UHGV virus genome: UHGV-1724231
DNA: 20,096 nt
From: a virus
Reading direction: 5' to 3' (one strand)
Part shown: piece after piece, positions 2,969 through 20,096 of the stretch
How the letters are laid out: every line of letters starts with the position of its first letter
How positions within the stretch are numbered: position 1 is the first letter of the stretch
The notes under the pieces: model-generated
What the model was told of the DNA's origin: nothing
Databases searched by the model: none
Seen by the model: only the letters and a program-made list of their open reading frames with translations
Program-made: the position numbers and the translations under genes

Positions 2969-3376
2969 ATGAAGACTGAAACAAAACATATTAATGGTAA
3001 GAAGGTGACAATTATCCTTCTTGGTGCAAGAGATGGTATCAAAATTTCTATGAAGCTTGGTAAGGTCGTTGTACCCACCTTTGCTCAGATGATTACCAGT
3101 CTTGCTGGTAAAGATGAGAATCCAGAAGCTCCTAAAGTTCCTTTCAAAGAACTGGTAGAAGCTTGCTTTGACAGAATTGATGAGTTAGATATTGACTCAA
3201 TGGCAGAATTACTATTTCAGGGGGCAACTGTTGATGACTTCCCACTGAAAATTGATAGTTACTTCCAAGCAAACTACGGTGAATTTATTGACTTCTTAGC
3301 CTTTGCTTTGGAGGCAAACTTCGGAAGTTTTTTCGAGGCAAGCATTTTCAAAAGCCTAACTTCTCAGGAAGCTTAA
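2969..3376 (+). CDS. Tail assembly chaperone (G-like, upstream frame)
   Basis: 135-aa acidic ORF between tube and tape measure genes; contains in-frame T_TTT_TTC slippery heptamer near its 3' end. Confidence 0.6.
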   Translation: MKTETKHINGKKVTIILLGARDGIKISMKLGKVVVPTFAQMITSLAGKDENPEAPKVPFKELVEACFDRIDELDIDSMAELLFQGATVDDFPLKIDSYFQANYGEFIDFLAFALEANFGSFFEASIFKSLTSQEA

Positions 3377-3612
3377 AGTATGTTATGCAGACCCCGCTGA
3401 CTGACGGGGCTGTAGAATCAACTTATGAAGAAGCAGATGAGATGAAATTTGTGCTTGCCATTTATGGAATGGAAGGGTGTAAAGAAACACTCGACCAACT
3501 TTTCTCAATGACTTTCGTTGACCTATTATCTCTTCGTCAATATCTGGAAATCCAGAAGTCATACAAAGAAGAAATGGCCTATAACGAACTCAGAAAGGCA
3601 GGTAAAATTTAA
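3328..3612 (+). CDS. Tail assembly chaperone -1 frameshift extension (GT-like product; listed ORF 3385..3612)
   Basis: -1 frame is open from the slippery site at 3328-3334 through the 75-aa ORF to TAA at 3610-3612, which overlaps the ATG of the tape measure gene. Confidence 0.5.
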   Translation, partial: FFRGKHFQKPNFSGSLKYVMQTPLTDGAVESTYEEADEMKFVLAIYGMEGCKETLDQLFSMTFVDLLSLRQYLEIQKSYKEEMAYNELRKAGKI

Positions 3613-5846
3613 TGGCACAGTATACAGTTGATAGTTTTATTGTGGAACTTGGATTCAGTGAAAAGGTTGTAAAAGGTTTACAGAGAGTTGAAAAGATGGC
3701 TATGCAATCTGCTCAACGCATCGAAAGAAACATTAACAAAGCCTTTGACGTGAAGCCTAATAAAAGTTCTCAAGAAGCTCTAAACAGACTTGTTAAAAAC
3801 GCTCAGACTGCTTCGGGCAGAATCAATAAATCCCTAAACAACGCTCTCAATTTAGATTCTCAAGGTGTTAAATCTCTACGTAAATTAGAGACACAAGGGA
3901 AGAAGACAGCCAAAGAAATTAATAAGGCTCTAAGACAAGCTATGAACGTTGACGGTAAAGTTAATATTCGTGGTGGTGCTGGTAGAGGTCGTGGGAATAC
4001 CGTTCCCCCAATGGGTGGAGGTTCACCAAGAGTTAGACCTGATATTGCTCAGAGACAAATGGAAAGGATGTTTAATAACAACTTCTACTCTGGTCTTACT
4101 CGTCGTCTTGAAACTATTGGTGGACAGGGTAACCAAATGGCTGCTTCTTTCAGAGGCAACTTGCAAGGAATCTATAACAAGTATAAAGGGAGTGGTAAGG
4201 TTGGTGAATATGAGATGGAAGTTAAAAAACTCATTGACACAACCAAACGTTGGGTTATTGCAGAAAATGCTAGAATCAAGGCAGTCAAAGAATCAGCTTG
4301 GCTACAGGATAGAGCAAACTCTTCACTAAGACAGTTAATTGGTGGTTTTGTTTCTGCCTATGCTTTGTTAGAATTAGCTCAGAAGACCATTGATGCAGGT
4401 GTTAAAAGACAGTCTGCACAGTTAGCCTCTACAGCTATCTTTGGAGCAGATACACAGCAAGCTAGAATGTTCGCTGCTACATTCTCTCACCAGATTGGTC
4501 AGAACTACACAGACACTATGAAGCAGTACTCAAACTTTGCTGCTGGTGCTCAACCTGCACTTGGTTTCAAAGGTACTCAGGAGTTCTATAAGAACGCTGC
4601 AATGTTCTCTCGTATTAGAGGGGCATCTGATGAAGACTTGAAAGGTATCATGGTTGCTTTCCAGCAAATGGCATCTAAGGGTAAAGTTCAGGCTGAAGAA
4701 CTTCGTGGTCAGTTAGGTGACCGTTTGGCAGGTGCTGTTCAGTTGTTCTCTGATGCTATTGGTAAGACTCCACAAGAACTTGATAAGTTGATGCAGGATG
4801 GTAAGCTACTTGCTAAAGACGTTCTTCCAAAAGTCTCTGAGAAGATGAGAGAATTGGTTGACGCAGCAGGTGGTATGAATGCTGTATCTAAGCAGACTGC
4901 TACATCAATGGGTCAAGCAAAAGCTATGTGGGATAACACCTTAGTGGCTCTCTTCAACAACTCTAGTGATGGTATCTCACAGTTGTCTAACTCCGTTGCA
5001 ATGTTCTTGCAAGGTTCCCTTGGGACTACTGAAGCTCTTGGTACTGGTATTGGCTACCTGTTAAAAGGTGCTAGTAACCTTCTGGACTTCATCACAGATA
5101 TCATGTATCGAATCTCTGGACTGTACTACCTAGCAATGGGATATTACAGTGATTTAGGTGCAAGTCAACAGAAACTTATCAAGGAATCTGCTGAGTTAGT
5201 TGCAACGTTTACTGCTATCGGTGTTGCAATTGCAGCTATCACGAAAGTTGCTAAAATCTTCGGTGGTACTGTAGCATTTGTCAAGAGTATTTTTGAAGAA
5301 GGTATCTTGGCTAAGATTGCTCAAAAGCTTGGTCTGACAACCGCAGCAGAGACAGTAGCTACAACGGCTGGTGTAACAGGAACTAGAATGGCTCTTGGTG
5401 TAGGTGGTTCTGCACTTATGCTTTCAAGTTCGGCTGACCCAAATGCTGGGAAGAGATTTAGTGATGTTAATACACCAAACCCTTTCAACGAAGCTATTGC
5501 TGGGGTTACCAATGCTAAACGTCCGATGTTCTTTGACCAAAATGGACAGTTGAGGTTCGCACAATATACCACTGACACTTCTGGAAATATTCAGAGAGTG
5601 GATAATGGATTGTCAAATTGGGATATCATCATGAACAACCTGTCTGAGTCTTTAAACAACTTTGCAACTAAGTTTAACCAGACACCAATGATGATGAGTC
5701 CGTCTGGATTCCCATTACAAACTAAGCAGACGCTTAATGTTTCCTTTAATCTGGATGGTAAGCAGATTGCTAATAAAATGGTGGATATCACTAATAAGAG
5801 TCAGGAAGATATTCTGTTAAGTTCTAGCTACCCAGAGGATGAATAA
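3612..5846 (+). CDS. Tail tape measure protein
   Basis: 744-aa ORF, largest in the tail module, Ala/Gln/Lys-rich with Gly-rich segment ([17 protein letters not shown]) and hydrophobic C-terminal segments; immediately after the chaperone pair. Confidence 0.75.
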
Positions 5847-15249: not shown

Positions 15250-15278
15250 TTGACTAACTGTCAAGATGGTGTTAATAT
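15250..15278 (+). promoter_or_regulatory. Sigma70-like promoter (TTGACT-N17-TAATAT)
   Basis: -35 TTGACT at 15250-15255, 17-nt spacer, -10 TAATAT at 15273-15278; lies in the gap after the fibre gene, about 50 nt upstream of ATG 15328. Confidence 0.5.
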
Positions 15279-15900: not shown

Positions 15901-15928
15901 AAGGCTCCCGTAAAAAGGAGCCTTTTTT
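15901..15928. terminator. Bidirectional rho-independent terminator between convergent transcription units
   Basis: AAGGCTCC-loop-GGAGCCTT stem followed by TTTTTT on + strand; on the - strand the same hairpin lies just 3' of the thymidylate synthase stop and is followed by a U-rich tract. Confidence 0.7.
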
Positions 15929-18663: not shown

Positions 18664-19013
18664 TTAATATCCTCATTTTTAAAGGTGAACGTGGTGTAGT
18701 TAGTCCCGTCAACATTTAGCCAGATAGCCTTAACAGATACACCATCAATATTGCCAAACAGTTCTTTGATGAACTTGTTACGAACATCATGAGCACAAGT
18801 TGTCTCAAGCTTAATGTTAGAGATAGCGGAGCCAATTGTCATATAACCAGCAATACGACTCTTCTCAGTATGCTTGATTCTTCCTTCTTGATACATCTGC
18901 TTCAGGACTCCCAAGAGTTCTTCACCAAATGACTTCTCAGCACTCGTCGGTTTCCCGTAGAAACCAAGTGCAAAGTTGTCGTTGAAAATTGCATTCTTAC
19001 GTTTCATAATCAA
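18648..19013 (-). CDS. Hypothetical protein
   Basis: 121-aa ORF in the same coupled operon. Confidence 0.5.
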   Translation of the reverse strand: MIMKRKNAIFNDNFALGFYGKPTSAEKSFGEELLGVLKQMYQEGRIKHTEKSRIAGYMTIGSAISNIKLETTCAHDVRNKFIKELFGNIDGVSVKAIWLNVDGTNYTTFTFKNEDIKCLFP

Positions 19014-19309
19014 TCTGCCTTACTTAAGTTGAAGTTTAAACCAAGTTTATCACAAATACTAATCATGTAGTCAAGCGAAACTTTACCGCTACCGTTTAAG
19101 ATGTTTGAAACTCTTGCTTGAGAAATCTCACAAATCTTTGCTACCTGAACTTGTGATAGATTGTTTCTTTTCATGTGAATGTGGAGTTTCTCAGAGATAT
19201 AGAACTTCATCTCATCCACATCCATTCCAGCTATGTATGTTTCCATTTCAGACTCTCTATCAGCCTCCCAAGAATCTTGAGGTGCATAAGGGTCGAAGAC
19301 TTTATTCAT
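19010..19309 (-). CDS. HTH (XRE/Cro-C1-type) DNA-binding protein with acidic N-terminal extension
   Basis: 99-aa ORF; C-terminal helix-turn-helix signature LSQVQVAKICEISQARVSNILNG; ATGA overlap with the downstream gene. Confidence 0.6.
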   Translation of the reverse strand: MNKVFDPYAPQDSWEADRESEMETYIAGMDVDEMKFYISEKLHIHMKRNNLSQVQVAKICEISQARVSNILNGSGKVSLDYMISICDKLGLNFNLSKAD

Positions 19310-19505
19310 CCTTCTTCCTCCGTTTACGCGAAGTGTCTATTAATGAATCTATACTGGTTGCTCTTACATTCTCACGAGTCCCGTTGACGAAGTGGTCTAG
19401 AGCCTCTACAACCGTATTAAAATCCTTAGCCCAAACTCTGTAAATAACTACTCCATCGTCGTCAACAACTTCGCCATAGTCAATTCTACAGATGTTCTTT
19501 TTCAT
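19302..19505 (-). CDS. Small hypothetical protein overlapping the HTH gene
   Basis: 67-aa ORF with basic C-terminal tail (RKRRKKDE); 8-nt overlap with the HTH gene start, 4-nt overlap with the upstream gene. Confidence 0.4.
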   Translation of the reverse strand: MKKNICRIDYGEVVDDDGVVIYRVWAKDFNTVVEALDHFVNGTRENVRATSIDSLIDTSRKRRKKDE

Positions 19506-19882
19506 TGTGGCAGACCCATGCAGTGACGGTTGATGATAAAGTACTCAAACCCATCTAAAACAGACTGTGTAACGTGTTCTTCTACAGCTTTAGTTTCAGA
19601 AATCTGTTCAGAACTTAGAACATCAATATTCTCAGAAACCATCATATCAGCCACATCGTTGTAGTAACCACCCATAGTGTGGTAGATGAGGTCAGTTGTA
19701 CGGTCTGTCATTTCCTGAAAAGTTTCTTGGGTGATTGGGCTAGTTAACTCTCCAGACTTAGAAACAATCTTTTGAGAAAGCTCACAAGACTCCAGTTTAA
19801 CTTTACCGTAGTCCATATTTGGCATAACCGCATAAGCATTGAAGCTTAGTACTGCAAAGAGACATAGTGCAATCTTTTTCAT
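19502..19882 (-). CDS. Secreted/periplasmic protein with N-terminal signal peptide
   Basis: 126-aa ORF; MKKIALCLFAVLSFNAYA has a signal-peptide-like n/h/c region with an AYA cleavage motif; AGGAG RBS 8 nt upstream; first gene of the - strand operon. Confidence 0.55.
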   Translation of the reverse strand: MKKIALCLFAVLSFNAYAVMPNMDYGKVKLESCELSQKIVSKSGELTSPITQETFQEMTDRTTDLIYHTMGGYYNDVADMMVSENIDVLSSEQISETKAVEEHVTQSVLDGFEYFIINRHCMGLPQ

Positions 19883-19922
19883 AACTTACTCCTATATAAT
19901 ATTTTGTATACCTACAAGTATA

Positions 19923-19970
19923 AAAATAAGCTATAACACCTGACTTGTCAACAGATTTTATAGCTTATTT
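19923..19970 (-). promoter_or_regulatory. Candidate promoter (TTGACA-N17-TATTTT) within a 13-bp perfect inverted repeat (possible operator)
   Basis: On - strand: TTGACA (complement of 19946-19951), 17-nt spacer, TATTTT (complement of 19923-19928); arms AAATAAGCTATAA (19924-19936) and TTATAGCTTATTT (19958-19970) flank it. Confidence 0.4.
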
Positions 19971-20009
19971 GGCAGATTTTTTATAAGGCTACTGCCATCC
20001 TTCCATACC

Positions 20010-20096
20010 TTACCATGCCAGACTGGACCCTACCGCACCAAGCCAAGCCACACCGGACATTACTGAACCCAACCTCATTACAAGCCCCTCTTCAAA
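20010..20096 (-). CDS. Partial CDS (C-terminal 28 codons; gene continues beyond window end)
   Basis: - strand frame open from window edge to TAA (complement of 20010-20012): FEEGLVMRLGSVMSGVAWLGAVGSSLAW*; composition differs from the flanking AT-rich spacer. Confidence 0.3.
   Translation of the reverse strand, partial: FEEGLVMRLGSVMSGVAWLGAVGSSLAW

Follow-up and report, generated by a model that had tools for sequence, protein, structure and literature searches.

Arrangement of the locus

The window analysed here is the whole stretch of 20,096 nucleotides of the UHGV virus genome UHGV-1724231. It belongs to a Felix O1-like myovirus (Ounavirinae), with the Shigella phages ESh21 and ESh22 as its closest relatives (97.6% identity up to position 19889). 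Close to its end lies an inverted repeat with an embedded predicted promoter (19923–19970), which is the subject of this analysis. Read along the − strand, this element follows a guide RNA gene and precedes an operon that extends from a homologue of gp93 to thymidylate synthase.

The upstream neighbour (19971–20096, − strand) was identified from its sequence as a vrRNA gene of a VIPR (Viral Interference Programmable Repeat) system, because its YNNGG repeats and its tail match the published anatomy of vrRNAs and because gene 95 of the related phage wV8 matches Vipr. VIPR, reported only recently as an RNA-guided system for DNA recognition and proposed to be older than CRISPR, combines a RAMP-like Vipr protein with an accessory Vap protein and vrRNAs (bioRxiv 10.64898/2026.04.26.720920; 10.64898/2026.04.26.720927). 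According to the accessible parts of these preprints, a vrRNA consists of 9–16 YNNGG repeats, whose hypervariable NN dinucleotides specify the DNA targets (10.64898/2026.04.26.720920), and an invariant 3′ tail whose pseudoknot caps the RNA (10.64898/2026.04.26.720920; 10.64898/2026.04.26.720927). The following features were assigned on the − strand, in the direction of transcription. Invariance refers to 25 distinct sequences from relatives.

20076–20096, −: conserved leader box upstream of the vrRNA repeats (partial, as the window ends there)
20003–20075, −: vrRNA repeat tract of 14 YNNGG units, GGY positions conserved, NN hypervariable
19971–20002, −: vrRNA 3′ tail with the hairpin GGCAG (19971–19975) / CTGCC (19992–19996)
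19985–19988 with 19999–20002, −: tail pseudoknot between the loop and the second segment, AAGG/CCUU in the RNA
19958–19970, −: 5′ arm of the inverted repeat, AAAUAAGCUAUAA in RNA sense, invariant
19938–19956, −: upper 5-bp helix AUCUG/CAGGU (one U·G pair) with the 9-nt loop UUGACAAGU
19946–19951, −: predicted −35 hexamer TTGACA within the hairpin loop, invariant and spared in the variant of ASO1B, which alters two adjacent bases
19924–19936, −: 3′ arm UUAUAGCUUAUUU, overlapping the promoter spacer and all but one base of the −10 hexamer
19923–19928, −: predicted −10 hexamer TATTTT, 17 nt from the −35 hexamer, invariant
19917–19922, −: TATACT, the last invariant bases; possibly discriminator and end of a U-rich tract, or the counterpart of the −10 of another promoter, P_B

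In the relatives, the intergenic regions upstream contain tracts with a 5-nt NNACC period (GGTNN on the − strand), covarying hairpins and conserved boxes. The complete wV8 genome has four NNACC tracts only, all of them flanking genes 94–95, and wV8 gp95 matched the PDB entry 36pp, “SUSP1 Vipr protein”, with an E-value of 6e-128. Tract lengths vary among the relatives solely by multiples of 5 nt. Across relatives the G positions alone are conserved within the units, and the NN positions remain hypervariable next to genes that are themselves ~96% identical. The code of the vrRNA in the window reads TG TC AA CC GT TT TT GC AG CC CT AT AA AT. Paralogous tails covary both in their stems (GGCAG/CUGCC, GGUAG/CUACC, AGUCUCA/UGAGACU and AAUCGGA/UCCGAUU) and in their pseudoknots (AAGG/CCUU, GUGG/CCAC and GUAG/CUAC). 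Other interpretations of the (NNACC)n arrays, as origin, primase-site, R-loop, TRAP-like or rut elements, were dropped upon the match to Vipr. Searching GTDB for a target of the window vrRNA (9 units, allowing a 1-nt skip) yielded 19 matches, about the number estimated for chance and none of them enterobacterial.

We refer to the vrRNA tail, the hairpin and the promoter together as the block. It is identical in phiSUSP1 (27531–27626), the experimental phage of the preprint.

Anatomy of the inverted repeat and the predicted embedded promoter

The inverted repeat claimed in the preliminary description of this DNA is present: AAATAAGCTATAA (19924–19936) is the exact reverse complement of TTATAGCTTATTT (19958–19970), giving two perfect 13-bp arms on either side of a 21-nt core (19937–19957). 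Within this core, TGACTTGTCA (19941–19950) had been taken for a palindrome. TGAC and GTCA do face each other around TT, but the sequence is not a true 10-bp palindrome. Its centre lies 1.5 bp off the axis of the large repeat, and in the natural variant of ASO1B, TGAACTGTCA, its symmetry is destroyed and TTGACA is kept.

The inverted repeat starts 1 nt after the hairpin of the vrRNA tail. On the − strand its stem comprises 18 bp with an interruption, namely 13 bp, a 1×1 mismatch and 5 further bp including one G·U. The predicted hairpin energy is −17.2 kcal/mol for the − strand compared with −13.0 kcal/mol for the + strand, where the U·G pair of the upper helix is an A/C mismatch. Of 60 Markov-1 random 20-kb sequences, one contained perfect inverted arms of 13 bp or more around a loop of up to 45 nt; therefore, a chance origin of the bare 13-mer is not negligible. 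The element as such is not a chance feature, as follows from its position and its near-invariance in ~230 genomes.

The promoter suggested previously was recovered by a promoter scan, with TTGACA at 19951–19946, a 17-nt spacer and TATTTT at 19928–19923 on the − strand. With 10 of 12 matches it ranked at the top of 46 promoter-like sites in the window, a total at chance level (51.7 ± 7.4 in shuffles). The spacer falls within the 16–18 nt typical of sigma-70 promoters, and the −10 hexamer has the A at position 2 and the T at position 6. The site is intergenic, 34–40 nt upstream of the same-strand ATG at 19882, and GenBank record MZ726792 carries a promoter annotation at exactly the 19923–19951 site. 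Its upstream A-tract/TG context, AAAATCTG-TTGACA, resembles other intergenic wV8 promoters, for instance aaaagttgTTGACA. Transcription is predicted to start at ~19915–19916, which places the 5′ arm at about −54 to −42, where an UP element would sit. From these features, 19923–19951 is likely a host-type sigma-70 promoter. TATACT as an alternative −10 was rejected, lying 23 nt from TTGACA and having no usable −35 at 16–18 nt, as was a mirror-image promoter on the + strand (TTGTCA, 15 nt, TATTTG), which matches poorly. The genome papers of Felix O1 and wV8 describe neither this promoter nor the repeats.

Conservation of the block and its association with vrRNAs

Over the 98 nt of 19915–20012, identity reaches 95% or more in 230 of 232 phage records. 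All columns from 19917 to 20007 are invariant except four, each conserved to at least 90%, and both promoter hexamers belong to the invariant part. Conservation collapses at 19916, 1–2 nt before the predicted start. The 27 complete loci that we extracted contained three natural variants: that of ASO1B, with two changed loop/spacer bases and an intact TTGACA; 19956 T>C, which converts an A-U pair of the upper helix to G·U; and 19938 A>G, which breaks one terminal pair. A scan of IMG/VR gave 24 loci with invariant arms throughout. The matches of a metagenome scan with the 16-nt core were mostly due to chance, and in the two real loci among the matches listed the arms were again invariant. Complete E. 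coli genomes contained no match to the block, and Rfam in E-value mode gave no match for the loci of two relatives covering the region. Arms and core are single-copy in wV8 as well as in the window.

Three locus architectures could be distinguished among the relatives. In architecture A (ESh21, Michonne), a ligase gene is followed by the promoter P_B and the gp93 homologue, without vrRNAs and without the block. Architecture B (Felix O1, EC6, Si3, UAB_Phi87, SP116) has the ligase gene, P_B, one or two vrRNAs, the block and the gp93 homologue, and lacks vipr and vap. Architecture C (wV8, SUSP1, Moogle, Mijalis) corresponds to B with vipr and vap inserted between the vrRNAs. All 29 block-bearing loci examined had an adjoining YNNGG array, whether vipr is present (wV8, SUSP1, Mijalis) or not (Felix O1, EC6, Si3, UAB_Phi87), and about half of the block-bearing phages lack vipr; the record counts are 231 for the block, ~118 for Vipr and 258 for the gp93 homologue, a marker of the operon with the helix-turn-helix (HTH) protein. 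Based on these architectures and counts, the block tracks the vrRNAs, and neither the HTH protein nor Vipr or Vap.

Architecture B includes “orphan” vrRNAs, without vipr or vap, in Felix O1 (AF320576, 57630–57920) and, by record counts, in ~110 other Felixounavirus genomes. In these loci, one or two vrRNAs and the block lie between P_B and the gp93 homologue. Some of the orphan arrays look intact (10 of 11 GG phases kept), and that of Felix O1 is partly degenerate (7 of 12).

The block lies on a mosaic boundary as well. Between wV8 and Mijalis, vipr and vap (genes 95–94) are 92–100% identical and the block 98–100%, compared with ~50–70% for the intervening vrRNA arrays and 40–87% (mostly 50–70%) downstream of the block. 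The window and ESh21 are 97.6% identical downstream of 19889, and the whole upstream module is absent from ESh21; the two diverge at the promoter (19889–19917), where ESh21 has P_B directly and no vrRNA module. The operons being near-identical and the module present in the window only, the vrRNA/VIPR module is gained or lost between near-identical phages. TATACT occurs at both edges of this difference.

Such a position could point to a function as DNA, either as a cruciform that would switch the promoter with supercoiling or as a site of preferential recombination by which the vrRNA/VIPR module passes from phage to phage. For the DNA hairpin, −11 kcal/mol was predicted (z = −4.1), the block sits exactly at the mosaic boundary and at the indel between near-identical phages, and the PeSL (promoter-early stem-loop) cassettes of T4-type phages, with which the element is compared below, were proposed to mediate such module shuffling (PMC2839356). 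With one copy per genome, however, the element has no partner for intragenomic exchange, and a cruciform is disfavoured by the 21-nt spacer, or alternatively by the 9-nt loop and the mismatch. We therefore regard a role as DNA structure as very unlikely.

Outside this group, the Listonella phage phiHSIC encodes a distant Vipr homologue (32% identity), followed by three pentamer arrays of the GCANN type (3086–3430 of the locus examined). Each of these arrays has a conserved leader, GGGGTAAAACTCAA, the first two also have a hairpin, and they are partly annotated as ORF21 (open reading frame 21). Judged by its sequence, this locus looks like a VIPR variant with a different repeat consensus. No comparable repeat was found after its last array; the element is therefore not general to VIPR.

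The downstream operon and a possible operator

Downstream of the block, the operon begins with the following features.

19883–19916, −: 5′ untranslated region of the first gene, variable over its initial ~8 nt, then with the conserved ATACAAAAT and the Shine-Dalgarno sequence GGAG
19502–19882, −: first operon gene, 126 aa, phrog_4332, homologue of gp93, function unassigned
19010–19309, −: third operon gene, encoding an HTH_3 (XRE-type) protein of 99 aa (Pfam HTH_3, E = 4.6e-9)

A small open reading frame separates the gp93 homologue from the HTH gene, and the operon continues to the genes for dihydrofolate reductase and thymidylate synthase. The protein of the first gene is ~30% identical to its homologues in wV8 and Felix O1 and ~45% to that of Moogle. 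Searches of Pfam gave no match for gp93, gp94 or gp95.

The preliminary description had interpreted the repeat as an operator overlapping the promoter, possibly for the HTH protein of the operon, or as a regulatory hairpin. As an operator, the arms would be bound by a dimeric phage protein, either the HTH protein (gp91) or Vap1, which is predicted to bind DNA, and the bracketed promoter would be regulated thereby. A perfect 13-bp dyad that brackets the −35 and overlaps the −10, an XRE-type HTH gene within the operon, and arms as fully invariant as expected of a protein recognition sequence all fit this explanation. The HTH protein is, however, kept in phages without the block (97% identical in ESh21, 62% in Michonne), and its recognition helix ISQARVSNI differs between phages by no more than one A/S exchange, which is unrelated to the presence of the block; the operon marker likewise occurs in more records than the block. 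That the block is unchanged in phages without vipr and vap, such as Felix O1, speaks against Vap1. Furthermore, the 88-kb genome of wV8 contains no second copy of an arm with up to one mismatch, and matches with two mismatches are at chance level. An HTH dimer typically has half-sites about one helical turn apart, whereas the arm centres are separated by 34 bp and neither arm contains a dyad of its own. The sister promoter P_B conserves pairing and not sequence (see below). Since the HTH gene persists in block-less phages and a complete relative genome contains no further copy of the arms, the reading as operator of the HTH protein is unsupported, and we consider an operator for any of these proteins quite unlikely. 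Of the two interpretations offered earlier, it is the regulatory hairpin that the evidence favours.

The 5′ untranslated region of the first gene contains another candidate for regulation. ATACAAAAT lies within an AT-rich near-palindrome, TATACAAAATATTATATA (window ~19893–19911, − strand), and architectures A, B and C all keep it upstream of the gp93 homologue. This region would be a better operator candidate than the 13-bp repeat if the HTH protein autoregulated the operon; ATACAAAAT could equally be a signal for translation or stability.

Possible signals for termination or processing

In RNA transcribed through the vrRNA, the U-rich tract UUAUUUUUAU follows directly 3′ of the inner stem. 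Its tail score of 3.75 compares with 3.2–3.8 for clear terminators. The internal vrRNAs have a tail hairpin with a U-run of their own, annotated as a terminator in MZ726792. The tail of the last vrRNA has no U-run of its own, and the inverted repeat supplies one. Because of this difference, the higher stability of the − strand hairpin and the distance of 1 nt to the tail, a role of the repeat at the RNA level appears plausible.

Several results weigh against such a role, or against the composite signal proposed below. Intrinsic terminators have a G+C-rich stem and a loop of 3–8 nt, whereas this stem has 4 G-C among its 18 pairs, a 9-nt loop and the 1×1 mismatch. A standard terminator scan of the window did not call the hairpin. 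A d'Aubenton-Carafa-type score came to about −20 to −36 compared with +2.6 and +4 for two clear terminators of the window, in a rough re-implementation of which the ranking alone is meaningful. All four vrRNAs of SUSP1 are ~100 nt long according to the accessible preprint text (10.64898/2026.04.26.720920). An RNA ending at the U-tract would be ~55 nt longer than the reported vrRNAs, so that trimming or cleavage must be assumed. With invariant arms there is zero covariation for this hairpin; of the natural variants, one lies in the loop only, one changes an A-U pair to G·U and one breaks a terminal pair. The invariance of the block may, moreover, largely reflect that of a whole conserved VIPR module, in which vipr and vap are ~96% identical, and the edge of conservation at 19917 is explained equally well by a transcription start and by a terminator U-tract ending there.

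Another possibility is that the element is an RNA signal only, a terminator or an RNase III/E processing site of the last vrRNA, with TTGACA and TATTTT unused and the operon transcribed by read-through. The position 1 nt after the vrRNA tail and the U-rich UUAUUUUUAU behind the stem are in line with it, conservation stops where the U-tract stops, and promoter-like matches are no more numerous in the window than expected by chance. With a length of about two helical turns, the stem would be a plausible substrate for RNase III, judged by the RNase III sites of T7 early mRNA. On the other hand, a perfect TTGACA stands exactly 17 nt from TAnnnT, in the upstream context usual for the family, and the sole loop variant spares it. 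If termination were efficient, the essential operon for nucleotide metabolism would need a promoter at this very place. An RNA signal without promoter function is, in our view, unlikely.

Promoter-overlapping stem-loops in the family

Of the 42 matches in wV8 to the pattern TTGAC[ATC]-N16-18-TAnnnT, 6 are overlapped by an inverted repeat of 9 bp or more, compared with 1.8% of random 100-nt segments (binomial p ~1e-4). The window has just two perfect inverted repeats of 10 bp or longer, and both lie on intergenic promoter-like sites.

Besides the element itself, this concerns CAAGATGGTG (15262–15271/15296–15305, + strand), which brackets the −10 of a promoter-like site, TTGACT-17-TAATAT (15250–15278). 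The site precedes small + strand genes, after which a bidirectional terminator follows (15901–15924), and wV8 shows this arrangement as well, at 55049.

A further case is P_B, which sits directly before the gp93 homologue in phages without vrRNAs.

ESh21 locus 5490–5570, and 5480–5560 and 4240–4300 of two other loci, all outside the window: P_B, AAGTTGTTGACAT-N-TATACT

An inverted repeat brackets the −10 of P_B and shows compensatory changes between lineages, with the arm pairs TGGTGAGTA/TACTCACCA, TAGTGGGT/ACCCACTA and CCTGACGGGT/ACCCGTCAGG. These changes indicate selection on pairing, thus a nucleic-acid hairpin and not a protein recognition sequence. Read-through RNA would fold at P_B, and RNA starting there would hold the 3′ arm only.

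These comparisons bear on the explanation that the element is a promoter only, its repeat being a by-product of A/T-rich UP-like and −10 sequences or a recombination scar, conserved merely with a module that is young or highly conserved as a whole. Given vipr and vap that are ~96% identical between genera, zero changes in 54 nt are only mildly surprising, a perfect 13-bp repeat is found in ~1/60 random 20-kb sequences, and the agreement of the TATACT at the block end with the −10 of P_B points to a recombination joint. Against this explanation stand the extension of the repeat to 18 pairs with a strand-specific G·U, the family-wide enrichment of promoter-overlapping repeats and their covariation in P_B. 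In addition, a paralogous segment upstream of vipr keeps TCTGTTGA and has lost the perfect −35 and the repeat together. We consider a promoter without a functional repeat rather unlikely.

A proposed composite signal at the 3′ boundary of the vrRNA array

The reading that we favour, with about even confidence, is that of a composite boundary signal at the 3′ end of the vrRNA gene or array of the VIPR locus, made up of the hairpin and the promoter embedded in it, for which we infer promoter activity and start site as well as the role in termination or processing. At the level of DNA, the A/T-rich upstream arm, TTGACA, the 17-nt spacer and TATTTT would act as a host sigma-70 promoter, which would drive or restart transcription of the downstream − strand operon, from the gp93 homologue to thymidylate synthase. 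In read-through transcripts, in which the vrRNA has already been copied, the arms would fold into the interrupted 18-bp hairpin with the adjoining UUAUUUUUAU. This hairpin would terminate or attenuate these transcripts or offer a double-stranded site for cleavage. As an outcome, the vrRNA unit would become separated from the operon mRNA. Transcripts from the embedded promoter would begin downstream of both arms and hence contain no hairpin.

More tentatively, the block of tail, hairpin and promoter might be a dedicated exit module of the vrRNA arrays in Ounavirinae. The hairpin would then define or release the 3′ end of the last guide RNA, and the outward promoter would allow the cassette to sit between a −10 (TATACT) and a gene without polar effects. 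If so, guide-RNA cassettes would be portable, which would explain their gain or loss between near-identical phages, such as those of the window and ESh21, as well as the vrRNA-only loci in Felix O1 and ~110 other genomes.

Outside the VIPR context, stem-loops that overlap a promoter are commonplace in phages. The accessible text of the VIPR preprints does not address how guide RNAs are transcribed, how their 3′ ends are formed or how they are insulated from essential neighbours. In it, terminators are never mentioned, promoters come up only with plasmid and reporter constructs and with vrRNAs reprogrammed to promoter-proximal targets, and neither Felix O1 nor a vrRNA locus without vipr appears. 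The element is the obvious candidate for the 3′ boundary signal of the array, and its identity in phiSUSP1 makes it directly testable in the experimental model. The exact recombination boundary between otherwise near-identical phages with and without the module also lies at the element.

Comparison with known systems

The element resembles Rho-independent terminators in having a hairpin that is followed by a U-rich tract, with an A-tract upstream. It differs from them by its few G-C pairs (only 4), the 9-nt loop, the internal mismatch and the low score.

With regard to VIPR, positions 19971–20075 show the anatomy given for vrRNAs in the accessible preprint text, with YNNGG repeats, hypervariable NN and a tail of hairpin and pseudoknot. 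The inverted repeat and the promoter lie outside the RNA described there, and in the VIPR arrays studied here the element follows only the last vrRNA.

In phage T4, gene e, gene 49, soc and I-TevI have a promoter inside a hairpin, where read-through RNA folds and RNA started internally lacks the hairpin. The 3′ arm sequesters the ribosome-binding site in these cases, and control is translational. The element shares with them that read-through RNA would contain both arms and RNA from the internal promoter no hairpin. Here, in contrast, both arms lie upstream of the predicted start and at least ~25 nt from the Shine-Dalgarno sequence.

The layout of the element matches that of the PeSL cassettes of T4-type phages, in which a stem-loop overlaps a sigma-70 promoter with an AT-rich region upstream (PMC2839356; Comeau et al. 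2014, PMC4122927). Their stem-loops were shown to terminate transcription, and they mark indel boundaries (Arbiol et al. 2010, PMC2839356). Like these, the element has a near-consensus sigma-70 promoter, AT-rich DNA upstream of it and a stem-loop lying over −35, spacer or −10, at an intergenic site on an indel and mosaic boundary. In contrast to PeSLs, it is found in Ounavirinae and not in T4-type phages, as a single copy per genome and not as a repeated motif. Its stem is long and AU-rich where that of PeSLs is G/C-rich, and it follows a non-coding guide-RNA gene where PeSLs follow an ORFan. For PeSLs, the stem-loop was shown to stop RNA synthesis arriving from upstream, with the promoter starting it anew; for the present element, both activities are predicted from sequence. 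What is new here is a PeSL-like signal in a different family, single-copy and AU-rich, that is attached to a guide-RNA gene.

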